Of a stretch of DNA of 64,000 nt, positions 3,901-46,900 are shown piece by piece; position 1 is the stretch's first letter; each line of letters opens with the position of its first letter. A program made the position numbers and the translations under genes. The notes under the pieces were generated by a model. That model made no database searches and was not told the origin of the DNA. It worked only from the letters and a program-made list of their open reading frames with translations. Location: the NCBI GenBank assembly GCA_963575745.1, contig CAUYUJ010000159.1, forward strand, positions 372,001-436,000, written 5' to 3'. The DNA is from Prorocentrum cordatum (taxonomy: Eukaryota).

Positions 3901-5350
3901 GCCGCGCCGCGTCTCGGCCGCGCTGGTTGGCGAGCGGAAGGGCCTTTGATATGGGTCGACCATAATGAGATGCACGTAGACATCGCCTCGACACCGCGGG
4001 CGCAGCTTGCCGACATGCTAGAGCTCGGAGTTCACGGGCGGAGAGAGCTCAGGTTTGCTCAAAAGTTGGGTTTCCCAGCAGGCACGCGAACAACCTTAAA
4101 CCTGATTCGAGGCCGAGTTGGGACTAACACCCGCAAGTTTTCCAAATACCAGACATATTTGATCAAGAGAGCTGCCTGCCAAGCATTGTGGACCAATGAT
4201 CGCGCCGAGAGGGCGGGGCACTTGCGCGACGGGGTTTGTGCCTGTGGGAGAAGGGGCGCATTCCACCACAGGTTGTACTTGCGCCAGCTAGAGGGTGAAT
4301 TCAAAAAGCCGAGGCCCCCCATGAATTCCTGGACGTCTCCAGGGGCAGCCCCGAAGAGCCCATTTTTACCAATGGAGTTTTCACATATCAGGACAGCGAG
4401 GTGCCAAACCCTTCCGCGTCGACTGAGTGCGAGGTGTTAGATGGCAGCGGCAAACCACTGGACATGGAACCTGATCAAATTGCATCTCTCACTGCTGCTG
4501 CGCCTCTCCGTCTAGCTTCTGACGGATCTTGTAGCAGGCAGTTGTTGCGACCGCTGCGCAGAGCCGCCCGGGCAATAGCAGCGTGCCCAGACGCTGGCGA
4601 TGAAACCGTTGCTGTTATGCGCGGGATAGTCCCATGTCAGATCCCTCAGGCTCTTGCGATGGCTGAACACGTTGCCATCGCTCTGCGTGGTCAAGTGGCG
4701 ACTCGGGAAGCTCATTTCGCATCAGATTGCTCGGCAGCAGTGAGAGCCTGTCAGCAGCAGGTCTCGCGCCAAGTCAGCGTTTCTAGCGCATCAGACAATT
4801 CGCCCTCCAGCTGGAGGGGGCGCCCTTCATGCAGTCTGCTCTGCATGTCAAAGCGCACCGCTCCGAAGGAGTCCTTGGCGATTTGGAGGGCACTGAGCGA
4901 ATCTATGCATATGCGAACTCGGCGGTGGGTAAGCAGGCGAAAGTGGCCCTAGATAGCCACCCGAGTCCGACGCCCAAATTTCTAGCTGATTTGGACGTGG
5001 CGGCCCAACGGGCCTCGTGTTTCATGAAAGTTGCTGCGGAGGTCCTGCCCCTTTTCCAGAATGATGTTCGGTGGAAGCGCCCGCCAAATACATCTGCGTC
5101 GAGACTTAGGCATCCTGGCGCGATTGGCAGCTCGGCGAGTTAGGCGTACAGTGCAGATGTTGCCTGGCTCTGGCCGAAGGCCCACGCGAGCAGCTGCAAA
5201 CGAACGGCTGCCCAGGCGTGCCGAAGGTGATTGACAAATTGCTCTCCGATCCCAATGGACATCGCCTCGTCGCCTGGGCTGGATCGATGGCTCGAGACGC
5301 TGTTGGTGTTGCCTCGTCGTCGTCGTGTCGCCCTGTGTCCTGAGAGCATA
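975..5350 (+). pseudogene. LINE ORF2 pseudogene (APE-RT-RNase H)
   Basis: Motifs listed for the element are split over ORFs 461-1378, 1421-1711, 2687-3658, 3817-4440, 4401-4952 and 4829-5143. Confidence 0.8.
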
Positions 5351-5816
5351 ACATAGTTTGTTTGAATTGTGGAGGGTGGTCCCAATGACGAGCTCGCAAG
5401 CTCGGCCGTAGTTGCGAGCAGCCGACGAGAAAGGGCCTCGAGGTCCCCGGGAGGTTCCGCCAAGGCAAATGCCCCAATCGCCGTGTGCATGCGATGCTTG
5501 ACAAGACTGTGCCTCTCTTGAGGCTGGCGGAGTTGCCTGCTGACCCGAGGACCTCGAGCGCCCCCTCCGATGTTCGGACTCGGTTTTCGGCCTCGGATTC
5601 GGCCCCCCTCCCATGAGCAACGTAGGTCGGCACTCGTTGAACGAATCCGACTCAAAGAACAAGGTGCTACTGCTCGTTCCCGGGGGTAACTTAAGTCTGG
5701 GCCTCCAGAGTAGGCCGTTTCGGCCCAACTCCAGGGCGACCCTTCCCCACTATTGATTCTTTGGTTTTTAGCGCCGTGCACTTCCCCCATGGGCATTCCA
5801 TTCCATCACGTCCCTG

Positions 5817-5858
5817 TCCGTCGCCATTTTGGATAAAGTCCGTAGCCTTTCGCTCAGG
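5817..5858 (+). other. Two tandem dinoflagellate spliced-leader relics
   Basis: TCCGTCGCCATTTTGGATAAAG (5817-5838, 19/22 to DinoSL) is directly followed by the more decayed TCCGTAGCCTTTCGCTCAGG (5839-5858). Confidence 0.75.
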
Positions 5859-12885: not shown

Positions 12886-13670
12886 TCATGCGGCCCTGGG
12901 GGGGGTGGCCCCTGCGTCGGACTGCGACGCGGGCCCGTCGAACCGCAAGTCGAGCTCGGCGTCGGGCTGCGAGTCCTCGGCGTCGGGCTGCGCGTCGAGC
13001 TCGGCGTCGACCTCCTGCCCATCGGTCGCCTCGCACTCCGCGGAGTCGAGCGTCAGGGGCTCAAGCGGCAAGAAGCATACCACATCGGCCCGAAGCACGC
13101 TCCACCGCGCTGCTGCCCGAGGCGTCCCCGTGCCGCGCGACTCCCCTGCAAGCATCGCCTTGCACGACGAGAAGGCTACTGCGCCGCAGGTGCACCGCGT
13201 GCCGAGCACCGTGGCCTCGACGGCAAGGCGAACAGCTGGCTTCTTCCGTGACTCCAGGCGCGGCCCATGTCGCGCCCGTCGGAAGTTCGCGGCGTCGGCG
13301 ACCGACACGTCCAGACAGGTGGCGCCCGCATGCAGGCCAACGTTGCGCCGTAGTGCTGCGAGCCCATCGGGCACTCCACCCTGCAGCTTTGCCAACAATG
13401 CTGGTAGCAATACGCGGACCCGCTGCGCCGCCTCGCTGCTTCCGACCATGGCGTCGAGCGCCCGCTCGGCGAAGGCAAGGCGAACCTCTATTTGCGTCTG
13501 CCGTTCCCTGAGGCGCTGCACCAGCAGATCTGCGGACGCCCGAGCGCCAGCAACGCCGCGCCTCGGGCATGCCTTCGCCGCACCATCCCCCGTCTGGGCA
13601 GCAGCGTCCCGCGCCACCCTCAAGAGCCACCGCGGCACCTCCCCCTCGCTCCAGCCTGGGCGCACATGAG
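12886..13670 (-). pseudogene. Coding-like stretch of unknown function downstream of an SL relic (possible retrocopy or retroelement ORF1)
   Basis: Protein-like reading RLRERQTQIEVRLAFAERALDAM...LAALRRNVGLHAG plus DAELDAQP repeats. The first ATG after the SL relic is out of frame with it. Confidence 0.3.
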
Positions 13671-13712: not shown

Positions 13713-13734
13713 CTTGGGCCAAGATGGTTACGGC
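13713..13734 (-). other. Spliced-leader relic
   Basis: Minus strand reads GCCGTAACCATCTTGGCCCAAG: 19/22 to DinoSL, ungapped, all three differences transitions. Confidence 0.8.
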
Positions 13735-18105: not shown

Positions 18106-19428
18106 TCAGGCAGGCGACGCGAAGGCGACGTTCAGGCATGGATTGAGCAGGAGCATGTTGCGACAGCCTACCACATTATCATGCTTTCAGTGGATATAGC
18201 CATTGACACAGACATGGGGGACCTCATGCGCACGGATACTATCACACAGTGGGGTAAACATATCTTGGCTAGGCGGGTGTGGAACACAGGGGGGGGGGCC
18301 CCCTGTGAAACCTGGAGCGCGGCCAGATGGCTGGACGGGGGTCCCCCCCCACTACGTACACATGAGTGGTACTGGGGCGTCCCATGGATTTCTGAACGAC
18401 AGGCCCTCCAACTACACGCGGCCAATACGCTACTGCAGAACCTGGTGTTCCTCTTGGGCTGCCACATGGTGGCGGGGACTTCTGGGTGGATTGAACATCC
18501 TCTCCCGGCCCACTGGAGGCCAGAAGCCCCCAGCAGCTTCCACTGGGAGCCCCTAGAGGCCCTAGCCTCAGCCCCCATCACGATCACAGCCGACTTTGAC
18601 CAATGCACGTTGCAGCCGACAGATCGAGACCCTGCGGAGTTTGGAAGAGCTCCCACGCGTCTCCTCGGACTGAGAATGCCATGTTTGCGAAGACGCCTGT
18701 GCGAAGGACCAGGCAATGGCTGGTGTCGCCACGGGAAAGGAGTGCACAAAATACTGCAGGGGAAGGAGCTTGTTGGAGGACGCACAGTCTTTAAGACGCA
18801 TGCTAGGAAGACATATCCCGAGGAGATGTGTGCGCGCCTTGCAGCAGCCATTGCAGCCTCCATGCACAACATTTTCACAGATGCTGACAATGACGATCAG
18901 CACATGGATGAAAGCGCGCTGTGCGCTGACTTACGCAAGTTTTACCTGCCAGAGATAGGTGCGGACTTTGAGACAGCACCAGATTTCGCAGGAAGAACGA
19001 CCAAGATGCAGAGAGCTGATCCAGAGATGCACAGGTTCCAGGACGACCCCAGTGAGACTCCCAAGGGCCCCATATGTGCTCCGACTCCAGCTCCCACCCC
19101 TGCTCCGACTCCAGCTCCTGACCGCCCCAGCAGGAATATTCCCATGCATGAGCCTGGATCGGATGAGGAGTTAGAGAGTTGGTTGAGGCCTTTTCCCTCT
19201 CTCCCCTCCTCTCCCCCGCCGCCGCTGCCGCTTCCCCCTCCCCGCCCCTCTCTCACCCCGGCGCAGCTCGAGCGCATCGCCACCCATAGGGAGGAGGCGC
19301 TGCGCCGTCGTGAGCTACGACGCCAAGCTGCTCGAGAGGAGGACGCGAGGCGGAGGGCCCCGTGGAGGGGCAAGGTCTCCTTCGCCCAGGCCTTCCAGCC
19401 CTCCCCTCCCACCTTTTTCTTCTCCTAA
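18106..19428 (+). CDS. 5'-truncated retrotransposon-type C5 cytosine methyltransferase-like ORF with a Pro-rich linker and C-terminal helix
   Basis: Open frame from 18106: SGRRREGD (motif I-like), LSVDIAID...GDL (II/III-like), GGGAPCETWSAAR (catalytic PC, motif IV), WIEHP (VI-like), DQC, KTYPEEMC. DNMT domains are known in Symbiodiniaceae retrotransposons. Confidence 0.6.
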   Translation, partial: SGRRREGDVQAWIEQEHVATAYHIIMLSVDIAIDTDMGDLMRTDTITQWGKHILARRVWNTGGGAPCETWSAARWLDGGPPPLRTHEWYWGVPWISERQALQLHAANTLLQNLVFLLGCHMVAGTSGWIEHPLPAHWRPEAPSSFHWEPLEALASAPITITADFDQCTLQPTDRDPAEFGRAPTRLLGLRMPCLRRRLCEGPGNGWCRHGKGVHKILQGKELVGGRTVFKTHARKTYPEEMCARLAAAIAASMHNIFTDADNDDQHMDESALCADLRKFYLPEIGADFETAPDFAGRTTKMQRADPEMHRFQDDPSETPKGPICAPTPAPTPAPTPAPDRPSRNIPMHEPGSDEELESWLRPFPSLPSSPPPPLPLPPPRPSLTPAQLERIATHREEALRRRELRRQAAREEDARRRAPWRGKVSFAQAFQPSPPTFFFS

Positions 19429-32089: not shown

Positions 32090-35000
32090 GGCGGGCCAAG
32101 AGTGCCGCAAAAAACCCCAAACGGTCCAAGAGGGCCCCAGAACGCCGAACGATCGATGCCCAAAGAGGTCTCCAAGAGGGCTCCCAAGAGGGCCCTCAGA
32201 GGTCCAAACCATTGATTTTCCTAAGGTGTTTGAAGAATGTTGCGTTCTGGTCTTTTCGGCTTCGCGATGCTCCCAGAAAACCCTGGAGGCCCTCAAGACC
32301 GCACCAAGACCGCCCCAAGACGGCTCCAAAAGGGCTCCAAAACGGCCCAAGAGGGCCCCAAGACGGCCATGGAGGCGCCCAGAGCGGCCCAAGAGGGCCC
32401 CAAGACGGCCCCCAAACGGGCCCAAAAGAGAGAACGCGAACCGAAAATCCGAGCCCTCCCCAAGAAGCCCCCAGGAGGCCCCGAGAGGCGCCCAGGAGGC
32501 CCCAAGAGGCCCCAAAGAGCCTCCCAAGAGGCACCCAAAAGGCCCGACAGAGGCCCCAAGAGCCGAGCCCCCCAAAAACCATCAGGAGGACTGCCTCCAA
32601 GAAGCCCACGACAGGCCCCCCACGAAATCTGGACGAACATCCAATAGGCTTCACACCCACAACCCAGGCACAGTGGCGGGATGGGCATAAAGCCACTAGA
32701 TATCCCAGCAAAATGGCCGACGCCCCCTGTCGATTCATCGCAGGGGTGCATGGCGTGCTAGATTATTACGGTTGTGGTGTTGGCTCTTGTTCCAAAAGAA
32801 CTCCCCCTGGAGCTTCGGCGCGTCCCGCCGGCTGCCTGCCTCGTCGGCTTTTTCGCTCAAGATGGCCAAAGATGGCCTCCAAGATGCCTCCAAGACGGCC
32901 AAGATGGTCTCCAAGACGGCTAAGATGGCCTCAACACGCCTCCAAGACTGCCCAAGATGCACCCAAGACGGCCTAAGATAGCCTCAAGATGGCCCAAAAT
33001 AGCCTAAGAGGCCCCCAGGAGGCCTCCAAGACGGCCCAAGACGGCCCAAGAGGCCCCTAAGAGGTCCTCCAGGAGGGCCCGAAGAGGCCAAAATCATTGA
33101 TTTCCCTTAAGTTGTTGAAGGATGTTGGCATTTGCTTCTTCTCGGCATTCCGACGGCTCACGACGGCACAAGAGGCCCCCAAGATCGCCCCAAGACGGCC
33201 CCAAGAGGGCCCCAAGAGGCCTCCAAGACGCACAATATGGCCTCTAAGACGGCCCTGGAGCATTCCAAGAGGGCCCCAAGTCGGCCCAGAAAGGCCCCCC
33301 AAACGGCTTCCGACGGGCCAGGAGCCAACCAAGATGGCCGAAGTTGTCTCGCAGCTGGCCCAAGACGGCCCAAGCCAAGAGGGCCTCCAGGAAGGCCAGA
33401 AAAGGCCAAACACACTGATTGTCTGTTGAAGGATTTTGACATTTGCTTCGTTTCGGCCATCCGACGGCCCGCGATACGGCCCGAGAGCCCCCAAAGATCG
33501 ATCGCAGATCGCCCAAGAGGCCTCCAAGATGGCCCCAGAACGGCCCAAGCGCCCCCCAAGACGGCCCCAAGAGGCCCCCAAGACGGCCCAGGAGGCGCTT
33601 AAGACGCCCAAGATGGCCTCCAAGACGACCCTGGAGCATACCAAAAGGGCCCCACGTCGGCTCAGAGAGGCCCCCCAAACGGCTTCCGACTGCGTCGGAC
33701 GGGCCAGGGGCCCACCCAGACGGCCGAAGCTGGCACTAAGATGGCCCAAGACGGCCCAAGAGGCCTCCAAGAGGGCCTCCAGGAAGGCCCGAAAAGGCCT
33801 GATGTCCCATGAGTGTTCGAAGGGTTGTGGCATTTGCTCTGTGTCGGCCTTCCGACGGCCCGAGACGGCCCAAATGCCCCCAAAGATCGCCGAAGGGGCC
33901 CAAAACGGCCCCAGGGGGCCCCCAAGACGGCCCAAGAGACCTCCAAAACGCTCAAGATGACCTCCAAAACGGCCCAACAGCCCATCAGACGTCGGCCCGA
34001 AAGGGCCAAAATGGCCTCCAGGCGGCCAAGATGACAGTCAAAATGCCTACGTGTTCCCCGAAGGCTTTCCAAACCGATTCAGGGAACACATGGTCCGAGA
34101 GCTTGGCAGGTCTGGCCTCAACGTTCGGCCACATTGGCGCTTCCACAAAGGCAAGGGGCGGCGGTGATTCGCCGTACGAGTCCTCGATATCCCACCTAGA
34201 TGGCCGAAATTGGCTCGAAGCTGGCCCAAGACGGCTCAAGAGGCCTCCAAGAGGGCCTCCAGGAAGTCCAGAAAAGGCAAAACACACTGATTGTCCCTAG
34301 GCTTTTGAAGGATTTTGACATTTGCTTCGTTTCGGCCATCCGACGGCCCGCGATACGGCCCAAGAGCCCCCAAAGATCGCCCAAAGATCGCCCAAGCGGC
34401 CTCCAAGGTGGCCCCAGAACGGCCCAAGCGCCCCCCAAGACGGCCCCAAGAGGCCCCCAAGACGGCCCAGGAGGCGCTTAAGACGCCCAAGATGGCCTCC
34501 AAGACGACCCTGGAGCATACCAAAAGGGCCCCACGTCGGCTCAGAGAGGCCCCCCAAACGGCTTCCGACTGCGTCGGACGGGCCAGGGGCCCACCCAGAC
34601 GGCCGAAGCTGGCACTAAGATGGCCCAAGACGGCCCAAGAGGCCTCCAAGAGGGCCTCCAGGAAGGCCCGAAAAGGCCTGATGTCCCATGAGTGTTCGAA
34701 GGGTTGTGGCATTTGCTCTGTGTCGGCCTTCCGACGGCCCGAGACGGCCCAAATGCCCCCAAAGATCGCCGAAGGCCCCAAAACGGCCCCAGGGGGCCCC
34801 CAAGACGGCCCAAGAGACCTCCAAGACGCTCAAGATGACCTCCAAAACGGCCCAATAGCCCATCAGACGTCGGCCCGAAAGGGCCAAAATGGCCTCCAGG
34901 CGGCCAAGATGGCAGTCAAAATGCCTACGTGTTCCCCGAAGGCTTTCCAAACCGATTCAGGGAACACATGGTCCGAGAGCTTGGCAGGTCTGGCCTCAAC

Positions 35001-35932
35001 GTTCGGCCACATTGGCGCTTCCACAAAGGCAAGGGGCGGCGGTGATTCGCCGTATGAGTCCTCGATATCCCACCTAGATAACCGAAATTGGCTCGAAGCT
35101 GGCCCAAGACGGCCCAAGAGGCCTCCAAGAGGGCCTCCAGGAAGTCCAGAAAAGGCAAAACACACTGATTGTCCCTAGGCTTTTGAAGGATTTTGACATT
35201 TGCTTCGTTTCGGCCATCCGACGGCCCGCGATACGGCCCAAGAGCCCCCAAAGATCGATCAAAGATCGCCCAAGCGGCCTCCAAGATGGCCCCAGAACGG
35301 CCCAAGCGCCCCCCAAGACGGCCCCAAGAGGCCCCAAGACGGCCCAGGAGGCGCTTAAGACGCCCAAGATGGCCTCCAAGACGGCCCTGGAGCATACCAA
35401 AAGGGCCCCACGTCGGCTCAGAGAGGCCCCCCAAACGGCTTCCGACTGCGCCGGACGGGCCAGGGGCCCACCCAGACGGCCGAAGCTGGCACTAAGATGG
35501 CCCAAGACGGCCCAAGAGGCCTCCAAGAGGGCCTCCAGGAAGGCCCGAAAAGGCCTGATGTCCCATGAGTGTTCGAAGGGTTGTGGCATTTGCTCTGTGT
35601 CGGCCTTCCGACGGCCCGAGACGGCCCAAATGCCCCCAAAGATCGCCGAAGGGGCCCAAAACGGCCCCAGGGGGCCCCCAAGACGGCCCAAGAGACCTCC
35701 AAGACGCTCAAGATGACCTCCAAAACGGCCCAATAGCCCATCAGACGTCGGCCCGAAAGGGCCAAAATGGCCTCCAGGCGGCCAAGATGACAGTCAAAAT
35801 GCCTACGTGTTCCCCGAAGGCTTTCCAAACCGATTCAGGGAACACATGGTCCGCGAGCTTGGCAGGTCTGGCCTCAACGTTCGGCCACATTGGCGCTTCC
35901 ACAAAGGCAGGGGACGGCGGTGATTCGCCGTA
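32090..35932. repeat. CCAAGA(C/G/T)GG-rich satellite containing an ~878-bp unit repeated three times in tandem (~33333-35932)
   Basis: Identical landmarks recur at 33436/34315/35193 (spacing 879 and 878). Related degenerate satellite at ~45240-46440 and ~59680-59930. Confidence 0.9.
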
Positions 35933-36269
35933 GGCGTCTTCAATCTGTTTCTTTCCTTCGCAACAATTAAGATCTACCCCCCGGGGTTATCGGTACATCT
36001 TTTCGTATTGCAAATTGCATGTGATTCTGCCCCATCGCTCATCCGAAATATGAGCCCAGGCCGGTATCGTCCCCCCCTCATCCTCTGCAGAAAACCATGC
36101 GCGCGCACTCGTTTAGCAAAAACCATTTGTTTGCAATAGTGCATCGCAGAAGAACGAACAAGACGAGGTGCGCACGCCGCACGCGCGCGTCGTCGCGCGC
36201 GCATGCCGGAATGTTTCAGATCCGCCGATCTGGCGTGTGAGTTTCTGATTGCGTGGGCTTGAGGTTGCT

Positions 36270-36580
36270 CGAGCTTCGCTCTGGCGAGGGGGTGGGGGCT
36301 GACGCGGGCTGACATGGGCTAACGTGGGCTGACGCGTTTCGGTGCTCGGGGGGGGGAGCGGGCTTCGCTCTGGCGAGGGGGGGGGGGGGGGGGACGACGC
36401 GGGCTGACGTGGGCTGACGTGAGCTGACGCGTTTCGGTGTTGGGGGGTGCTCGGGAGGGAAAAAAGGGGGAGTGCTCGAGGCGACGGGGGGGGGTCTGAC
36501 GCGGGCTGACGTGGGCTGACGCGTTTCGGTGCTCGGGGGGAGGGGGTGTTCGGGGAAAGGAGAGGGGGGCGGGGCTCTGC
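36270..36580. repeat. G-rich minisatellite (GCTGACGTGGGCTGACGCGTTTCGGTGCTCGGGG); resumes at 43914-44230
   Basis: The same units lie on both sides of the Copia element. Confidence 0.85.
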
Positions 36581-36581
36581 G

Positions 36582-37191
36582 TGGAAGAACAGGCTCGGCA
36601 GAGCCGAAATTCGTTACATGTTCGTTGCCATGTTCTGCGGTGCGGGAGGCATAGCCTAGCACGGCATAGAACAAGAGTCCCTCTTTCTGGTGTGCAATAG
36701 ACCGGTACGGCCAACCAAACAATCTGTTCCCAGAGAGCTGTTCGGGAACATAATAATTTAGTCGTTTAGGGCACTGCGGCCAGTGTCATCGTGCAGGCGC
36801 GGAGGCGTGTAGCAATGCCACCTCCGCGCAGGCACGACCAGAGGTGTGTAGCCATGACACCTCTGGTGCTGGGGGTGCGTAGCAATGCCGCCCCCAGCCA
36901 TAGGACAGTTTCTGTCCGGAACTGTTTCGGCTCAAGGCCCATTCGGTGCGATGGACAAGAAGAAAAGAAGTGACTCCCCTGCCACCCAACAGCTCCGACA
37001 ATTCAAACGAATCCTAGTATCAACTAATACTTTACTTTGTGAGCGTCTTGGGATAGAGCCCAAGGAGGTCCTCAAGGAGCCCCTCCCCACCAGCAGGGAG
37101 GACACGATACGTCTGCTGTCCGACATCGCTGACGGCAGATTGGTGATCCCAGAGCCTCAGTAGAACCAGCAGTGATGGAGCCCATCGGGGA
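36582..37191 (+). repeat. 5' terminal direct repeat (LTR-like, ~610 bp)
   Basis: Aligns with 43299-43913 with about 19 differences by eye, including one 6-nt indel. Begins TG. Confidence 0.9.
36951..37163 (+). CDS. 70-aa ORF of unknown function inside the terminal repeat (72-aa copy at 43667-43885)
   Basis: MDKKKRSDSPATQQLRQFKRILVSTNTLLCERLGIEPKEVL...GRLVIPEPQ. Open in both copies; ATG is 14 nt after an SL-like 22-mer. Confidence 0.45.
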   Translation: MDKKKRSDSPATQQLRQFKRILVSTNTLLCERLGIEPKEVLKEPLPTSREDTIRLLSDIADGRLVIPEPQ

Positions 37192-39625
37192 CACGTACGT
37201 GGGGCCACTCGAGAGCAGAGCCCTGCAAAGGATTATGAGCCCAAGCGCTCCCACGATCCACGGCACGCAGCTGGGGGCGCAAGTGCGCCAGTGTGCCGCC
37301 TGCTTCGACTGCGTCGTGGGGCCCGCCGTGCAGTGCGACAACTGCGGCGGGATTGTGCACGCCCACTGCATGCAGGTGTTCGGCCGGAGCCCGGTTTGCG
37401 TGACCTGCATCGCGGAGCGGGACGCTTTCGTGGCCGCGAGGCGCTCCACCATGATCCAGCACGGCGCGCAGCAGTTCGGCCGCGCCCTGGCTTCTGGTGG
37501 GCAGCTCGCCGGCTTGGTCGTCGGTGCCACCGCTTTCAGGCTTCGGGCCGGAGTCATTCGACTTGCCAGCGGAGAGCTGGCCGGCGCGAGGCAGACCATG
37601 GGCGGAGTGGCTGAGATCCCTGGGCCTGCCCGCCCACGCGCGCTGCCTGCACTGCAGCCCGCGGATGCCCTCCTGGAGGGCAGCAGCTCGGCATCGACAT
37701 GGCCGACAGGATGGCAGACATGGAAGCGGAGATGGTCAGGCTCCGAGCGGAGAACGCGCAATACCGCAAGGAGTTCGGACTTCACCAATCCGGAGGCGGC
37801 GGCTACGCGACTCCAGGCGCCAGCAGCGCCGCGGGTCGGCCAGCCCCATCGACTCCGCATACCACGAGTGCGGCTGCAGCCGCTGAGGTCGACCAGGAGG
37901 GCGCCGATGGTGCAGCAGCCCTCCTCGCCGCGGCCCTCAGCGATCCAGGTGTTGCCCAAGGGCCAGCCGACGGCATCGAGGTTGCTGCGGCGGTCGCGGC
38001 AGCGGCCGAGGCGCAGCACAGTGCAGGAGGAGCATCAGGAGGAGGTGCAGGAAGAGCGAGCGGGGAGCAGGCGGGAGAGGTGAGCGTCGCCGACCCTCAC
38101 CGAGCCACGGCGCCACCCGCGCCGAGCGCCGCCGTTGGCGGCGCAGGCCTCGCAGCTGAGGACGTCCTCCCGCCTGGACTTGGCGCTGCGCCCTGGCCGT
38201 GGTCATCGGCGAGTGCGACGGCTGCTGGTGACTTCGCTGGCGGTGCGAGCTCCGCTGATGCAGCAGGTCTTGCTGCTATCCTGAGCCGCTTGAAGGGCGA
38301 CGAGGTGCCAAATCTTTCTTGGACAGGAGGCAGCAAGGCATCGAAGTATGAGGAGTGGTTGCAGACCAACACCCTCTACTACGCGTCGGTGCACCCGCAG
38401 GTCGAGGCCTGGTGGTGCAACCTGCGCGCTGCGGTGGACGCTATCGTACGACGCGTACCTGCACGTGGACCCGCTGCAGCGGCCGTGCATCTGTCCCCAG
38501 ACGTCGTGGGCAGAGGTCGGGGCACAGAGGCAGGTGGAGTACAAGTATCGGCCCTACCTGCTCCTGGCCATGCCCGAGTCCATCAAGACCCAGGCACTCG
38601 CCACCAGGCAGTTGAGCTGCAGCGAGCTCGTGTTCGCCGTGTGCGTCGAGGCGGGCCCTGGCACCCTCCGGGATAGAGCTGCCACGTTGAAGGCAGTGGA
38701 GCGACGTGGCAATCCGGCCGCCCCAGCCCGGGGGGAGGTGTACGTCGAACTGCAGCGGTGGAAGTTTGACCTCACCAGGCTGCAACGCCTTGGTGCTGTG
38801 GCCCCAGACCCTACCATCCAGCTCACCACGCTGCGCACGCTGGTGAGCAAGATGGCGGAGGCCGACGAGGACTTCAAGTTCCGGATGAGCAACTGGCAGC
38901 TCGTTCGAGGCCTCAGTGGCGCTGCGAGCTGCAGCCAAAGCCAGATCGACGAGTTCTGGCGCTTCCTGGCCGGCGAGGCCCGTGAGGTCTCCACCGACGG
39001 GGCGAGGCAGCAGCAGCAGCAGCATCCGCAGCAGACTCAGCAGCTTGGCAAGCAGGTGCAAGCGAAGGTCGCGTCGCTGGAGGCGCAGATTGCCTTCCTA
39101 GAAGGAGCGGGCAAGGGCGGCGGTCAGCCGTTGAAGCCAGGTCCCACAGGCAAGGCTGGCGGACAGACCAAAGGCAAGAACAAGGGCAAGGACTCGGAGC
39201 AGTCGAAGTTCTGCCAGTCCTTCGAGTCCGACGCTGGCTGCAAGCAGGGCGGCACATGCACGTGGCCGCACAGCAAGCTGCAAGCGAGCGAGGGGAAGTG
39301 CTTCAACTGCGGAAGCAAGGAGCACGCCAAGGACGCCTGCGCGCGCCCAAAGCGCGAGGCGGCGGCCAAGGCAGCAGAGGTTGCCATGAAGCCAGGAGGT
39401 GGTTCTGCCTCGGCTTCGGACCCAGGCGGCGCTGGTGCGCAGACACAGCCTGCGGCGCAGGCGGGTCAGCTCGGGGCCGTGGTGGCTGCGACGATCAAGG
39501 CTCTGGCAGGAGAGGGATCGCCTGGTGCCGCGCTTGCCGTCGCGCCCGCGGACGCGGACCCTGGATGGCTGGACAGATGGGCGACGTCGACGGCTCGGGC
39601 GGCAAGCCCCCGCGCGCAGCGGTAG
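37175..39625 (+). pseudogene. gag: Copia gag region (PHD finger, gag core, CCCH finger, CCHC knuckle), split by frameshifts
   Basis: C4HC3 finger at 37292-37408; CQSFESDAGCKQGGTCTWPH at 39212-39271; CFNCGSKEHAKDAC at 39299-39340. Spread over ORFs 37172-38083, 37699-38676 and 38348-39625. Confidence 0.8.
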
Positions 39626-42600
39626 CCGTGGCACGCCTGGTGGAAGTTGGCGGCAAGCGGATGTTGCTCGCCGACACGGGCGCCACGCACGATCTGCGCT
39701 CGATCCCTGTGGGAGGTGACCCTGGGGTCGGGACGCGGCGCGTCGATCTGCAGACGGCGACGGGCAGCATGGAGGCCAGGATGGGCGAGGACGACGTGGT
39801 GTACGTTGAGTCCGATACCCCTCTCCAGCCGCTCTTCCCGCTGGGGATCTACATCGAGGAGTGCGGGCTCGGCCTCGAGTGGACGCCTGAGGCTTGCATG
39901 TTGCGGCTGCCAGACCACAGAAGTTTGGAGTTGCAGTGCGTGGAGGGCAGCATCTACATCGCGGATGGCGATGCGGAGGTGCTGCGGCAGTTTCGCGCTG
40001 CTATGCGTTTGGCGCGCGGTCGTGCCATGGAGACCCAGGCGATCAGGGCCGCAGTTTTGCTGACGGAGCTGGCGAAGCATCGATCAGAAGGGCATCCCAC
40101 CTTTATGGCGGAGTGCCGCGAGTGCAAGCTCGCCGCAGGGCGCATGCGCCCGCACTATCGCCTGGACCCTTCTAACCGGCCAGGTGGGCAGCTTTCGGTT
40201 GACCTGAGCGGCCCCCATCCGCCTGGACGGTGGCCGAGTTCATTGCAGGAGGACGCGCCGAGGAGGGCGCAGTACTTCCTGCTCTGCGCCTACCAAGTGC
40301 TGACGCAGGCGGAGGTGGAGCAGCAGGGCCGCAACGTCGCGGACGCGGGGGCGGCCGCAGCGGCTGGCGACGCCGCGACGCCTGCTCAGGTCCGGCGCCA
40401 GGAGCGCTGGGGACAGCGGCACCGCCGCCGAGGACGACGTCGGCGCGGTGAGCCGAAGGTCTGGTACTTCACCGTCCCGCTGGAGCGGAAGACGGCCGAG
40501 GAGTGCATCAGGGCGCCTGATGCCGTTGTGGCGGCGGTCGGGCTCGAGTTCCAGGGGCAGGCGGTCTTTCGCATCCACGCGGATCGTGCCCCAGAGCTCT
40601 CAGGACCGCGCGTGCGAGACCACTTCGCCACGAAGCAGATCGTGGTCACCAGGACGCTGGGCGTCGAGCCCAACAATAATCCTCGCGCGGAGCGTGGCAT
40701 CGGCGTCATCAAGGGCCGCGCGAGGGCAATGCTGATGTCCTTCCCTGCCGCCGATCAGCAGCATCTCTGGCCAGCTGCCGTGCAGCATGCGAGCTGGTGC
40801 CAGCGGCGCTTGGCCATGGGGCGGGCGAATGACTGCCCAGCATTTGGGGACCTCGTCACGGCCAGGATCAAGGACCCTCCCAAGGCGGGCTTCGCAGCGC
40901 GAGGCAAAGACATGACCTTCCTGGGCAAGGAGGACCATACCTCTGGCAGCTATTTGGTGGGCCGGAGGGTGCGGGGCGCCAGGAAGGGCGAGGAGTGGAG
41001 TTTCGAGGTGTCGAGCTCCTACGTGGTCGACGCTTCGGCCGCGCTCCAGGATCCCGCGCTGTGCGACGCCAGAGGCAGTGCCGACGGCGGAGGTCGCCCT
41101 GTTGCCGCCGCGGCGCCAGGAGGAGGCCAGGAGGAGGACGAGGCAGAGGGCAGCAATCAGCCAGGAGATCAGGAGGAGGCAGTGGACGCCAGGAGGAGGA
41201 CAGGACGCCTGGATGAGGCAGCGGAGCCAGGAGAAGGGGAAGGTGACGGCATCTTCGAGGCGTTGTCCGATGAGCGGATCTTCTCGTGCCCAGCGTGCCG
41301 GGGCCGCCTTCGACCCCACACTCGGGACGAACGATGCCGCCTCGGAGCGCAGGCGGCGGCGGCGGTGCTGGCGTCGAGGAGCCAGGAGGAGGCGAATGCG
41401 GAGCAGGAGGAGAAGGAGTCCGGGCTCCCAGTCTTCCAGCAAGTGTTTAAGGAGAGTGGTTTTGCTCCCGCGACGGTTCGCGAGGTCGACCAGAGCTTCG
41501 GAGCTGAGCGGGAGGCCTGGCGACAGGCCCTGGGCGGTGAGCTCGAGTCCCTCCGAAGGAAGGATGCCTTCGAGGATCTATGTGCCGCGGAGGTGGCGTC
41601 GACGCCAGCCCGCAAGATCCTGCCTATGAAGATGGTGCTCGGCACGAAGCCTCGAAGCGAGGCCGATGGCGGCGGCCGCAAGCATAAGGCCCGCGGCTGC
41701 ATCTGTGGCAACTTCCAGCCGCAGGTCCCTGGCGAGGAGACGTTCAGCGCGTCGGTGGACATTGCCAGCTTGCGACTCGTCTTGGCCGTCGCCGCAGCGA
41801 ACCAGTGGGCATGCTCTGCCCTGGACGTGGCCACGGCGTTCTTGAACGTGGAGCTGCCGCCAGAGACTGGGGAGGTCCTCGTCCGACCTCCAGCCATCCT
41901 CCCCCGCTTCGGGTTGGTGCAGGCGGGGGCCCTGTGGCGCGTGAAGCAGGCCATGTATGGTCTGCGCGTCGCGCCGCGCGCGTGGTGGGAGAAACGTGAC
42001 CGCACCCTGCGCGAGAAGGCCCTCATGGTCGAGGGTGAGCGCTGCCGGCTTCGGCAGTCTCACAGGTTGACCAATGTTTGTGGGCGATCGTGAACAAGCA
42101 GGACCGCGTGCTGGGCTACGTGTGCGTCTACGTCGACGATTTCCTGATGGTAGGGGAAACCGCTGCCATCAGAGCGGTATCCGACATGTTGGAGTCGACG
42201 TGGACCTGGTCAGTGCAGTCGTCGATCTCTCCTGCGCACCCTGGCAGCATCAAATACTTGTCTCTTTCGATTCGGGCACGCGCTGACGGGTACTAGATCC
42301 ACCAGCAGGAATACTTGGAGGAGTTGCTGGCCAAGTGGGGCCTCGATCGTGGCAATGGCGTGGGCACGATCGTAATCGACCCCCTGCCTGAGCAGCCAGC
42401 CGACGCGGACGAGCAGGATGCAGTCAACTTAGGGCAGGTCCGTCTCGCACAGAGGATGTCCGGCGGACTCCTGTGGCTTTCGGGCCGCACGCGCCCCGAC
42501 GTGGCGTTCGCAGTATCTCGGCTATCTTCGGCCGCCGCACTTTACCCAGAGTGGGCCCTCAAGCTGGGAAAGAAGATCTTGAGGTACCTGGCTGGGACTC

Positions 42601-43123
42601 GGCACTACGGTTTGGCCTATCAGTGCAGTGGGGACTTGGCATTGCACGTCTATGCCGACGCATCCTTCGAGCCATCCACGGCCCAGACGGGCATAGCCGT
42701 CTACTTGGGACAGCGTCTAGTGGACTGGAGGTCGTGCAAACAACCGCAGCCAGCGAGATCCACAGCAGAGGCGGAGGTGGAGGGACTTGCCTGGAAGGCG
42801 TGGTTCTGGAAGGCGTTGAAGCCGTGCTCAGCAGCATGTTCATCAAGGCGGAGAGCCCGGAGATGTTTGGAGACAGTCAGGCCTCGCTCCACATTTTTAG
42901 GGGCCAGGGGTCGTGGCGGACGAGGTGGTTGGCGAACCGTGCTGCAGCTCTGAGGGCCAGGATTGAGGCTGGGCTGCTCGTTTTGGGGCACGTGGCGTCG
43001 GCTGAGCAGAAGGCCGACGGATTGACCAAGACGTTCTCGGTGCCCATGATGGGGCAAGTTCGCCGTGCATTGAGCCTGATTGACCACCACCTCCCGCAAG
43101 TTTCTCCCGCGCAAGTTTCTTGA
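39620..43123 (+). pseudogene. pol: Copia pol (protease-integrase-RT-RNase H)
   Basis: Motifs as listed for the element. Frameshifts near 42078 and ~42795, and an in-frame TAG at 42294-42296. Confidence 0.92.
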
Positions 43124-43298
43124 GCATCGACCTGATGCTTGGCATTCAAATGAGCACGCGTGGGTGCCACCAGGAACTTTTTGGGGATTTTCCTTTTGAA
43201 CTGTTTGGGGTCCCTGCTTCACCCGTTCCTCCAAGGCCAGAGGCTTCGCTCCCTTGCGGCGGTCGATTTGACACCGCCGCCGCGGGAAAGGAGAAGCG

Positions 43299-43913
43299 TG
43301 AAGAACAGGCTCGGCAGAGCCGAAATTCGTTACATTTTCGTTGCCATGTTCTGCGGTGCGGGAGGCATAGCCTGGCACGGCATAAAACAAGAGTCCCTCT
43401 TTCTGGTGTGCAATAGACCGGTACGGCCAGCCAAACAATATGTTCCCAGAGAGCTGTCCGGGAACATAATAATTTAGTCGTTTAGGGCACTGCGGCCAGT
43501 GTCATCGTGCAGGCGCGGAGGCGTGTAGCAATGCCACCTCCGCGCAGGCACGACCAGAGGTGTGTAGCCATGCCACCTCTGGTGCTGGGGGTGCGTAGCA
43601 ATGCCGCCCCCAGCCATAGGACAGTTTCTGTCCGGAACTGTTTCGGCTCAAGGCCCGTTCGGTGCGATGGGCAAGAAGAAAGGAAATGACTCCCACAAGC
43701 CTGCCACCCAACAGCTCCGACAATTCAAACGAATCCTAGTATCAACTAATACTTTACTGTGTGAGCGTCTTGGGATAGAGCCCAAGGAGGTCCTCGAGGA
43801 GCCCCTCCCCATCAGCAGGGAGGACACGATACGTCTGCTGTCCGACATCGCCGACGGCAGATTGGTGATCCCAGAGCCACAGTAGAACCAGCAGTGATGA
43901 AGCCCATCGGGGA
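43299..43913 (+). repeat. 3' terminal direct repeat (LTR-like)
   Basis: Copy of 36582-37191, preceded by a polypurine tract. Confidence 0.9.
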
Positions 43914-46900
43914 GGGGGGGGGGGGCTTCGCTCTGGCGAGGGGAGGGGGGACGCGTTTCGGTGCTCGGGGGGGGGGAGGTGCTGGGGGTGGGTGGGGGGG
44001 AGGGGCTTCGGTCTGGCGAGGGGGGGGAGGGGTCGACGCGGGCTGACGTGGGCTGACGTGAGCTGACGCGTTTCGGTGCTTGGGGAGGGGGGGCGCTCGG
44101 GAGGGGAAGGGGGAGTGCTCGGGGGGAGGGGGGGGGGAAGGAGGGGAGGGGGGGCTGACGCGGGCTGACGTGGGCTGACGCGTTTCGGCGCTCGGGGGAA
44201 AGGGGTGCCCGGGGGCGGGGGAGGGGTTCTGGAGGGACAGCAGCGGGATCGCCCCGGATCGGCGGCAGTGGCCGGAGGCCACTACAATACGTAAAGTTCA
44301 GTCTCGCAGCCAGGGCTTTCAAAGAAAACTGCGAACGCGCTTTTGCGAATCCTTAAGAAACCATTGGCTTTTCAACATGCCATAATATGCTACCGAGCGG
44401 GCCTCTCGCGCGCGCATGTCGCAATCGCTATAGACCCCTTGCCGACGCGAAAACATCGTCATCGTTATCGGCGGGCGTGGTCGACATCGGCGCTGTCATC
44501 TGCCTTGCCGTCGTCCTCGCCACCATCGCCACTTTCATCGCTACTCTCATATACCGTTGTCGGCGTCGCCATGGTAGCGCGCCCGCCCAAGTCACCGACT
44601 TGCACTGAAGTGCCCGCTAGGGGAGTGCCCTGCGGTCAGCGCCACCGCGGCCGCGTCGGCCACGCCAAACTAGCTGGCCGCTGTGCGCGCGAGCATGCGC
44701 GGGCTAGCGCGGCCGCAGGGATGCGCCAGCCAAAGCCAAGCACTCACCACAATCGCCGCCGAATGGGTTTTGCAAACCAAGTTGCGGGCGTCGTCGTTGT
44801 CGTCGACGCCGCCGTCGTCGTCGACGCCGTCATCGTGGTCGTCGTCGTCGCCGTCGTCGTCCTTGTCGCCGTCACCGCTCCCCCGTCCCCTTCCGCGGGC
44901 CCTCCTCGTCAAACGTCCCAGCCAAAGAGAATCCGAGCAACGTCGCAATCGAGTCGAAGGGAAGCCGATTCCCCGCGGGGGGGGGGGGGGCGGTCGCGGG
45001 AGGGCAAGGGGGGGGTCCCAGGAAGGGGGCAGGGGGGATGTCGTGGGGGTTGCGACCCTCCCCCCGTGGGGAAACCACCCTCCCTGAGGGAAGCTGTCCC
45101 CTTCGATTCCTTGTCTCCCGGATGCCTCGGGCCCCCCTGCAGAGTCGGCGGCACCGGCCACAAGGCCTTCACAAGCATTGACGTTCATTATGTTCTTCCT
45201 TTGTTTTTATCGTTCTCGCGTTTTCGGGTTCCCGACGCTCCAAGATGGCCCCAGAGGCTCCAAAGACCGCCACAAAACGGCCCGAGAGGCCCCCAAGAGG
45301 GCCCCTGGACGGTCCAAGAGGGCCCCCAAACGGCCCCAGATGCGCCCATGATCGCCCAAGAGGGCCCCAAGAGGGGCCCAAGAGCGGGAACACGAACCAC
45401 CAATTCGAGTCTTCCACCCCCAGAGGCTCCCAGAGGCTCCCAAGAGAGCCAGGAGGCCCCCTGGAGGCCCCTTGGAGGCCCAAACAGAAGCCCCGAGAGG
45501 CCCCCAAACGGCACCCAAGAGGCCACGAACGCGCAGGCAAATGCCTGCGGTGGCACAATATGGGCTGGCGAAACGAGCAAAACGATTAAATCCGCCGACC
45601 CTGTCGGCGTGTGCGAGCGGTTTGTCTGTTCGAGTCGTCGTCTCCGTCAGTCGTCGTCTGCGTCGTCCCCCTTGCCTGCACCCTCCTCAAGCCAGTCAGC
45701 GAGAGAAAAACCTCGCAATGTCGCAATCGAATCGAAGGGAAGCCTCTTTCCTTTGATCCCTCCCCCGTCGGGGGCGGGAGAGGGTCCCGGGGGAGGGTCC
45801 CAGGGGGGGGTGTCAGATACGCAACCCCCCTCTGGGGGTCCCGGGGCTGCAAAGAATACCGAAACAAGCCAAGAGTGCCCCAAGAGGACCCCGAGACGGT
45901 CCAAGAGGACCCCCAATCGCCAAACGATCTGTCCAAAACGCCGTCACGCTCCCAGACTGCCCAGGAGACCTCCAAGACGCCCCAAAAGGCCTCCTGGAGG
46001 GCCCCAAGAGGCACAAATCATTGATGATCCTTATGTTTTTGACAAAGTTTGGCGTTCTCGTTTTTTCCGCTTCCCGCCGCTCCCAGATGGCCGAAGAGGC
46101 CCTCGAGGTCGCCCTAACACGGCCCAAGGGGCTTCCAAGAGCACCCCAAAACATCCCAAGAGAACCCCAAGACAGCCCAAACGCCTCCAAGACGGCCCAG
46201 GAGGCCCCAAGACGAGCGTGCCTTGACGGGGAACCCGAACGGATGTTTCGAGCCCTCGGCCCCGAGAAGCTTCCAGGAGTTTCCCAAGATGCCCCAACAA
46301 GCCCACAAGAGGCCCCAAGGACACCCGAAAAGGTCCCCACTAGGCCCCCAAGAGGCTTCCAATAGACTCCAAAGTTCCCCCCTCGGAGGCCCCCGAGAGC
46401 CTTCCCAAGAGACCCCAAGAAGCATCCCTGAGGACTCGGGCCCACGTCCGCGTCGTCGTCGTCGCCGCCGCCACCGCCGCCGTCGTCGTCGACGTCTCCC
46501 TTCAGGGTCGGCGGCACCGGCCGTAAGGCCTTCGCCATAAATACACACAAACCCCATGATTCCCAATCTTTTTCAATATGTTCTGGATGTTTGTTTCCCC
46601 CCCCCACTTCCCACATGTGTCTGTGCAAGATCCCTCCTGAATGGTCCCGGTTATGACCTATCTCTTGGCCGCCACGGGCCCTCTGTCCGTGGCACTCTTC
46701 GGGCCGGGTCGATCTGAGGTTAGAGCAACGCGCTCCACTACTCGCAAAGTACCCACTCGCAAATGGCCTGGCTCCGCCGCGAGGGATCAGCGATCCACTG
46801 CATCGCAGGCAAGCATTTGTGGTCCAGACGTTTGCAAGCAAACACTCTGCGAATAGTGGGACGCGCCCGGTGAGTGGTGGCCCCAGGAAGCGAGGCCCGG

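Follow-up and report, generated by a model that had tools for sequence, protein, structure and literature searches.

A spliced-leader-like motif and a conserved small open reading frame inside the long terminal repeats of a Ty1/copia-type retrotransposon from Prorocentrum cordatum

Both long terminal repeats (LTRs) of a Ty1/copia-type retrotransposon in the genome of Prorocentrum cordatum hold a 22-mer that resembles the dinoflagellate spliced leader (DinoSL), followed at a short distance by a small open reading frame (ORF). The element was found in a 64,000-nt stretch of DNA (assembly GCA_963575745.1, contig CAUYUJ010000159.1, positions 372,001 to 436,000 of the forward strand), referred to below as the window and used for all coordinates. 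Alignment of the window with itself delimits a degenerate element of ~7.3 kb, bounded by two direct LTRs. The 22-mer is most probably derived from the spliced leader (SL), being a vertically inherited, degenerate copy of DinoSL within a Ty1/copia LTR, and the small ORF is, as judged from sequence comparison, a conserved coding gene belonging to an unnamed protein family. In the account that we favour, to which we give a little less than an even chance, the 22-mer would be an inherited SL relic situated at a trans-splice junction and marking the start of the translatable element RNA. That its terminal AG would still act today as acceptor for the true SL is slightly more doubtful again. The features on which the argument turns are the following.

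36582..37191, + strand: 5′ LTR, with a start that is ambiguous within 36579-36584
43298..43913, + strand: 3′ LTR
36915..36936, + strand: SL-like 22-mer TCCGGAACTGTTTCGGCTCAAG, 17/22 to DinoSL, ending in AG
43631..43652, + strand: identical 22-mer in the 3′ LTR, located by exact sequence search
36951..37163, + strand: small ORF, 70 aa plus stop, with its ATG 14 nt after the 22-mer and its TAG at 37161-37163
43667..43885, + strand: copy of the small ORF in the 3′ LTR, with 72 aa before the stop and 93% identity to the 5′ copy

Dinoflagellate nuclear mRNAs receive the same 22-nt leader by trans-splicing, with the sequence DCCGUAGCCAUUUUGGCUCAAG (PMC6050394; this and the other papers given by PMC number are cited for those portions of their text that were available). 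The first-pass annotation of this DNA had reported an ungapped 17/22 match to DinoSL with an exact end, identical in both repeats, and this proved correct at 36915 and 43631, the last 8 nt being exact. TCCGGAACTGTTTCGGCTCAAG occurs exactly twice in the window (0 expected, 100 shuffles). It lies in sense 14 nt 5′ of the ATG of the conserved small ORF, and no other AUG intervenes between 36915 and that of the small ORF. That both LTRs have the same 22-mer is uninformative because they differ so little overall (36579-37191 versus 43296-43913, 96.1% identity over 619 columns), with 17 substitutions, one 1-nt indel and one 6-nt indel in ~610 nt. The chance rate of SL matches was estimated, as the first-pass annotation had proposed, from 300 dinucleotide-preserving shuffles of the whole window, which gave 0.117 matches of at least 17/22 per shuffled window and 0.013 when the last 8 nt must also be exact. 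With its 17/22 match the 22-mer would also fail the BLAST filters published for relic SLs, which accept a maximum of one mismatch (PMC7245778). The 17/22 match alone is at best suggestive, and the case for an SL origin rests instead on the small ORF's relatives and on copia LTRs from the literature.

The small ORF conforms to its first description, with an ATG after 14 nt, a length of 70 aa and a stop at 37163, and the copy in the 3′ LTR (43667-43885) does keep its frame through the 6-nt indel. The N-terminus is basic, G+C content at the three codon positions (GC1/2/3) is 0.57/0.40/0.61, and frame 0 carries a coding-like GC3-GC2 signal. Read from an in-frame ATG in a hairpin loop, at 36885, the ORF has 92 codons, and its stop is followed after 11 nt by the next ATG (37175). 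A word-based search with the small ORF found one relative, P0001 (69% identical, with two cluster mates), and a HMMER profile search of 1.84e9 protein representatives found 10 proteins at E<=1e-3. After addition of cluster mates and one further match from a second profile search, the family stands at 16 proteins, drawn from ENA, JGI, Logan, NCBI and EukProt records and 29-77% identical to the window's 70 aa. Its members share the pattern KR-I-x-V/I-S/T-x-x-T-L-L ... L-G-L ... P-L-P-x-S ... E-x-I ... L ... I-A with conservative replacements, L28 being invariant and R20, T27 and P44 nearly invariant; most of the distant members have an N-terminal Met with basic residues that aligns with the window's Met. 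When searched against the window by tblastn, all 16 relatives matched nothing but the two LTR copies, and these in the frame of the small ORF (E 1e-37 to 4e-5); the next-best place in the window reached E 0.2.

This family appears to be without a name. Pfam returned no family for the 16 members (best E 0.0099, in 2/16), ESM Atlas gave no usable match for the small ORF, and an AF2 model of moderate confidence (pLDDT 70.3), with helices at 10-33 and 49-60, had no fold match in the PDB by Foldseek at E<=0.001. A search for longer proteins resembling the small ORF yielded none among 71 candidates, and all HMMER matches are of 131 aa or less. Contig searches likewise gave no match, whether in metagenome contigs (family alignment and P0008), in viral contigs (family alignment, pol fragment and a degenerate 22-mer pattern) or in genome contigs (P0012). 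The small ORF is not freely disrupted, in that relatives remain open down to 29-33% identity, a comparison that is biased by protein databases holding open copies only. Conservation of the peptide to that depth is also at variance with a regulatory upstream ORF, for which a non-conserved peptide would be the mark. The possibility that P0001-3 and P0010/15 join the small ORF to the window's next ORF by way of a 41-nt deletion was considered and rejected. In BLASTP against the ORF at 37175, the tail of P0010 reached no better than E 0.027 over 21 aa and that of P0001 had no match, and in tblastn the alignment of P0001 stays colinear and in the small-ORF frame past the stop codons of the window, as far as 37226.

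The leaders of these relatives bear on the 22-mer directly. Their nucleotides were deduced from the amino acids of ORF calls that run 5′ of the Met. TTGGCTCAAG is readable in them in three frames, as LAQ in frame 3 (..TV-LAQ-G/D in P0004 and P0013), as WLK in frame 1 (..TV-WLK in P0001-3, AV-WLK in P0011) and as GSS in frame 2 (SH-LGSS in P0016), which points to conservation at the nucleotide level. Five of the seven N-terminal stretches tested are fully compatible with the 10-mer TTGGCTCAAG, with shuffle probabilities of 0.003 (P0013), 0.008 (P0003), 0.011 (P0004), 0.038 (P0016) and 0.039 (P0011); P0011 has the motif region twice, as AVWLR and AVWLK. The ORFs of P0011 and P0016 are each only 33% identical to that of the window and their leaders are otherwise unalignable. 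From the end of the motif to the Met the distance is ~9-14 nt in the near clade, ~28 nt in P0016 and ~51 nt in P0011. In the stretch from SGTV to the Met, the amino acids of P0001-3 are not those of the window but the deduced nucleotides are, with a 1-nt and a 5-nt difference restoring the frame; such a change of peptide over the same nucleotides is a mark of a conserved nucleic-acid element. In distant relatives the tail of the SL is the sole recognisable part of the leader, and across families its last 8-11 nt are conserved. That the 22-mer would outlast its neighbours, as the first-pass annotation had implied, was borne out for distant relatives, in which the tail alone persists, and was not for near relatives, whose hairpins are equally kept.

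Further support comes from outside the family, in SmTCL1-4, four annotated Ty1-copia-like loci of Symbiodinium microadriaticum (supplement files 7-10 of PMC5776459, Chen et al.). In three of the four files (8, 9 and 10) TGGCTCAAG is present in sense inside the annotated LTR, where by simple arithmetic a given 9-mer is expected ~0.001 times per 118-254-nt LTR. The search of these printed files sees motifs within 10-nt print blocks only, and further copies in the flanks may be missed.

SmTCL file 8, LTRs at 5169-5286 and 12892-13009: TGGCTCAAG at 5238-5246 and 12961-12969, 40 nt to the LTR end
SmTCL file 9, LTR at 3866-4044: TGGCTCAAG at 3981-3989, preceded by TT, 55 nt to the LTR end
SmTCL file 10, LTR at 1761-2014: TGGCTCAAG at 1850-1858, 156 nt to the LTR end

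SmTCL file 8 additionally has TCCG 21 nt before the end of the motif. In the available portion of the main text of PMC5776459 the spliced leader is nowhere mentioned. Two other resemblances between the window and these loci were noted. In SmTCL3 (file 9) the annotation places an extra ORF(1) at 4606-5499, after the LTR and ahead of the main ORF; its N-terminus is Arg-rich, and it has a stretch (..FGIPEP..IFRLVSEV) that is by eye reminiscent of the small-ORF family. A stretch like the 5′ half of the SL occurs 40-60 nt from the LTR start both in the window (TTCGTTGCCATGTT, 36621-36642) and in SmTCL file 7 (GCGTTGCCTTTCGG, LTR positions ~44-64); these may reflect chance or a distant homology of the LTRs.

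The wider window contains other DinoSL relics, at 5817-5858 (+ strand, 19/22, with a second partial SL directly after), at 13713-13734 (− strand, 19/22) and at 32840-32861 (+ strand, 16/22, abutting the ATG of a repeat-rich ORF), where 300 shuffles lead one to expect 0.003 matches of at least 18/22 and 0 of at least 19/22 per shuffled window. Relic DinoSLs upstream of retrogenes have been attributed to mRNA recycling in dinoflagellates (PMC6050394, PMC5585692, PMC7245778), and the clear relics seen here indicate that reverse-transcribed SLs enter this genome.

Directly 5′ of the 22-mer lies a series of hairpins.

36789..36898, + strand: three tandem hairpins, whose stems differ yet stay complementary and whose loops share GTAGC(A/C)ATG
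36903..36927, + strand: fourth hairpin of 10 bp, including 3 G-U pairs, present in both the minimum free energy (MFE) and the centroid structures

The 3′ arm of the fourth hairpin is formed by the 5′ half of the 22-mer. The region 36770-36960 folds with an MFE of −105.5 kcal/mol (z −6.49), a stability reached by 0 of 200 shuffles, and the loop sequence GTAGCMATG occurs 7 times in the window where 0.35 matches are expected, the two LTRs accounting for 6 of the 7. As side observations, the trio recurs in the 3′ LTR (43505-43614), and the loop of hairpin 2 is identical to DinoSL positions 4-11. The tandem hairpins may form a protein-binding site, for which the adjacent small basic protein is a candidate partner. 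Each of the three tandem loops contains an AUG upstream of the 22-mer, so that translation of the small ORF by scanning would need an mRNA that starts at or just after the 22-mer. Hairpins, SL-like motif and small ORF do make up one module, as the first-pass annotation had it, and this module is situated inside the LTR.

In the favoured account the 22-mer would occupy the leader (R/U5) part of the LTR. The RNA of an ancestral element would have been SL trans-spliced 5′ of the small ORF and then reverse-transcribed, and since the SL ends in AG, a copied SL recreates an AG acceptor at the old junction (36936/36937). Joining of the true SL at this AG would yield an mRNA made of SL, 14 nt and the small-ORF AUG, and the next ORF would restart 11 nt past the small-ORF stop, at a distance suited to termination-reinitiation. 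RNA that escapes trans-splicing would retain the hairpins together with the full repeat. In the motif itself the last 8-11 nt would stay identical to the SL, and the 5′ half would drift and be recruited into a hairpin. The five mismatches that are common to both LTRs and to near relatives argue against re-copying of the full SL in every round. A more far-reaching proposal, which we regard as rather unlikely, is that copia elements use the host SL within their terminal redundancy and that the small basic protein is a new accessory gene product. SL trans-splicing at the LTR-encoded AG would then provide the RNA that is replicated or translated with its 5′ end, and minus-strand strong-stop DNA with its SL-complementary end would land on the tail in the 3′ LTR. 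The last 8-11 nt would be re-copied or selected in each cycle, with the 5′ half drifting, and the LTR-encoded small protein would possibly act on the adjacent hairpins with their conserved loops.

A number of observations weigh against the account of an inherited relic at a trans-splice junction. A match of at least 17/22 is expected 0.117 times per shuffled window, and the same five DinoSL mismatches occur in both LTRs and in near relatives (SGTV/SETV), so the last replication round copied no full true SL. The AG is followed by differing bases (G, C, C, G), which leaves a splice consensus unreadable. The nucleotides of the relatives are known from peptides only, and back-translation across the full 22-mer is weak, the observed score being reached in 1-76 of 300 shuffles with a null mean of ~16/22. 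Two of the seven stretches tested, P0015 and P0006, lack the motif; both have Met-basic N-termini and probably begin at the small ORF's own Met, which on this assumption would leave them no leader. Among near relatives the 22-mer is no better conserved than the hairpin region (MPPPA.GQ..S.TV corresponds to hairpins 3 and 4), and one of the four SmTCL LTRs, that of file 7 (3430-3677, whole), lacks TGGCTCAAG. P0004 and P0005 are labelled Pyramimonas sp. CCMP1952, a green alga, in the EukProt transcriptome set, and P0004 is 77-82% identical to the LTR ORF of the window; this label conflicts with the dinoflagellate signals of the window, and cross-contamination or mislabelling is possible. The element copy itself is degenerate, as follows from several frame changes in pol and in the pre-gag region (GC3-GC2 profile). 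No primer-binding site was recognised beside the 5′ LTR, TGGTAGCGGAGC having no match at <=3 mismatches in 37192-37563, and a tRNA-Arg predicted by ARAGORN at 18474-18561 was of no help toward identifying one. No target-site duplication was seen at the element borders, and the 3′ LTR lacks a CA terminus, ending in ..GGGGA.

Other explanations of the 22-mer have been weighed against this account. It is conceivable, if unlikely, that the LTR encodes a substitute for the SL, as in the mimic suggested by the first-pass annotation, with transcription starting at the T of TCCG and producing an RNA that begins with an SL look-alike and undergoes no trans-splicing. R would start at 36915, and the tail, perhaps together with TCCG, would be kept for host factors or for a promoter of the SL-gene type. 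Such a leader would equal that of a trans-spliced mRNA in length (22 + 14 nt), with the small ORF's AUG as its first, and the terminal repeat that trans-splicing would cut off would not be lost. TCCG stands 22 nt before the motif end in the window and 21 nt before it in SmTCL file 8, the SL tail is conserved with the middle left free, and the 40-55 nt between motif and LTR end in SmTCL files 8 and 9 are a plausible R-U5 length. A nematode SL sequence that acts as an internal promoter element offers a precedent, as does a dinoflagellate positive-sense single-stranded RNA virus reported with a 5′ DinoSL and read as a case of ‘molecular mimicry’ (Levin et al. 2017, cited in PMC9651163). However, the hairpins just 5′ of the motif are highly conserved in near relatives, which fits a transcribed leader better than U3, TCCG is absent from SmTCL files 9 and 10, and in the window the Sm-site-like run is interrupted by a C. 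A shade less likely still is that an SL, with or without the 5′ end of a host mRNA that included the small ORF, entered an ancestral LTR once and has no present role. Relic SLs are common in the window, an SL followed by a short untranslated region and an ATG resembles the 5′ end of an mRNA, and the five mismatches are stably inherited, all as a passive relic would have it. Neutral decay, however, would not allow for an exact tail in lineages whose ORFs are only 33% identical and in three unrelated-looking SmTCL LTRs. Nor is a host origin of the small ORF reflected in longer host proteins (0 of 71 candidates, with HMMER matches all <=131 aa) or in a poly(A) trace 3′ of the small ORF.

The resemblance might also be fortuitous, in that a conserved LTR motif of unrelated role happens to equal the last 9 nt of the SL and the 17/22 match is luck. 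The expectation of 0.117 matches per window speaks for this, GGCTCAAG shows no enrichment in the window, where it occurs 5 times for an expectation of 4.04, and hairpin 4 accounts for the 5′ half of the 22-mer. We nonetheless consider it improbable, given the same 9-mer in sense in three of the four SmTCL LTRs and in distant relatives, the occurrence of TCCG at SL spacing in two families, and the leader peptide SHLGSS of P0016, which agrees with the SL over an additional stretch. That the LTR contains an SL RNA gene or pseudogene is very improbable. The sequence is SL-like, and GT follows the AG in P0001 and in SmTCL file 10. In the window, however, the AG is followed by GC rather than GT (and by CA in SmTCL files 8 and 9), the Sm-like T run is broken by a C, and the sequence is continuous with a coding ORF; Rfam gave no relevant match, finding over 36000-44500 no family at E<=1 apart from one chance miRNA match.

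The remaining parts of the element are as follows.

37175..38083, + strand: first long ORF, of 302 aa; the LTR ends at 37191, and the ATG lies 17 nt inside it
38348..39625, + strand: probable gag proper, a 425-aa ORF with a CCHC knuckle and a strong frame-2 coding signal
39256..43123, + strand: pol, with RVT_2 by Pfam and frame breaks near 42000 and 42700
43284..43295, + strand: putative polypurine tract GGGAAAGGAGAA, assigned by its position directly 5′ of the 3′ LTR

The copia-type reverse transcriptase domain RVT_2 (PF07727) was detected at E 8.7e-15 (55.4 bits against a cut-off of 31.6), and at E 2.1e-15 in a repeat scan. A protease-like DTGA, a zinc-finger-like H..H..C..C and a CCHC were recognised by eye, all 5′ of RVT_2; Pfam matched no rve or protease domain in the element proteins, and zf-CCHC only below the cut-off at E 0.2. 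The first-pass annotation had placed the gag ATG at 37175. There is indeed an ATG at this position, and the GC3-GC2 profile is coding-like in frame 2 over 37180-37450, but this ATG lies inside the LTR and the ORF has no gag signature in Pfam, giving only sub-threshold C1/RING/PHD matches (E 0.06-1.3); the likely gag is the ORF at 38348-39625. The ORF at 37175 also includes a Cys/His-rich stretch (37283-37408) of the form C-x2-C ... C-x2-C-x4-H-x2-C ... C-x2-C, and a zinc-finger module 5′ of gag would be unusual in a copia element.

Colinear G-rich minisatellite blocks, 75% alike, lie on both flanks of the element (36273-36567 and 43925-44226), built from units of ~95-115 nt that contain CTGACGYGGG repeats. 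They could have arisen by insertion into an array, or as a product of duplication or recombination. Elsewhere in the window, 3′ of the SL relic at 32840, an 878-nt unit is repeated in tandem ~2.9 times (33423-35951, copies 95-100% identical). It is built from 10-11-nt CCAAGA(C/G)GGCC-like subrepeats, and the whole looks like an array of repeat-protein genes.

Comparison with known systems sets out which parts of this arrangement have parallels. Yeast Ty1, a member of the Ty1/copia group, already has the start of its first long ORF in the 5′ LTR, whose end falls within coding sequence, and the first long ORF of the present element likewise begins inside the 5′ LTR. To our knowledge, Ty1 has no separate ORF 5′ of gag in its LTR, and its host has no SL trans-splicing. 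The sag gene of mouse mammary tumour virus (MMTV) is a protein gene within an LTR, located in U3 and read from the 3′ LTR or from spliced RNAs; it shares with the small ORF the property of being complete within the LTR, whereas sequence and host are unrelated. Like the relic DinoSLs of retrogenes, the window's motif is in sense and a short distance 5′ of the ATG of an ORF, in a genome with clear relics. Unlike them, it sits inside both LTRs and would be inherited with the element rather than tagging a retroposed host gene, it keeps only the last 8-11 nt, and it has lost the AG at SL positions 6-7 that is the usual relic acceptor. The heat-activated SmTCL1-4 (PMC5776459) agree with the window in Ty1/copia order, in having LTRs and, for three of the four, in TGGCTCAAG in sense. 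Their LTRs measure 118-254 bp, have TG..CA ends (files 7 and 8), are followed by TGGTAGCGGAGC (files 7, 8 and 10) and hold no ORF, in contrast to the window's LTR of ~610 bp, which contains hairpins and a small ORF and has no such primer site. The RNA virus mentioned above is, like the present element, a selfish dinoflagellate element with an SL-like leader. Its similarity to the SL is high, whereas the window has a DNA-integrated LTR element with a diverged 5′ half, in which the position at the RNA 5′ end is putative.

Relic SLs before retrogenes, dinoflagellate copia elements and an RNA virus with DinoSL are already known. In the full-text literature searched, outside of which most subscription journals lie, we came across no report of copia LTRs with a recurrent SL-derived motif, or of a conserved small protein encoded in an LTR. 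The RNA of an LTR retrotransposon needs identical sequence at both ends, and trans-splicing would remove the 5′ copy; the literature searched contains no account of how LTR elements cope with SL trans-splicing. A conserved SL tail at an AG, before the first AUG, in several copia families offers a concrete site for this interaction between host and element. Copia elements are also the suspected source of reverse transcriptase for the mass retroposition of SL-tagged genes (PMC6050394), a process on which SL homology in copia LTRs could bear. A conserved protein gene that lies wholly inside an LTR, 5′ of gag, and belongs to no known family would represent a new accessory gene.

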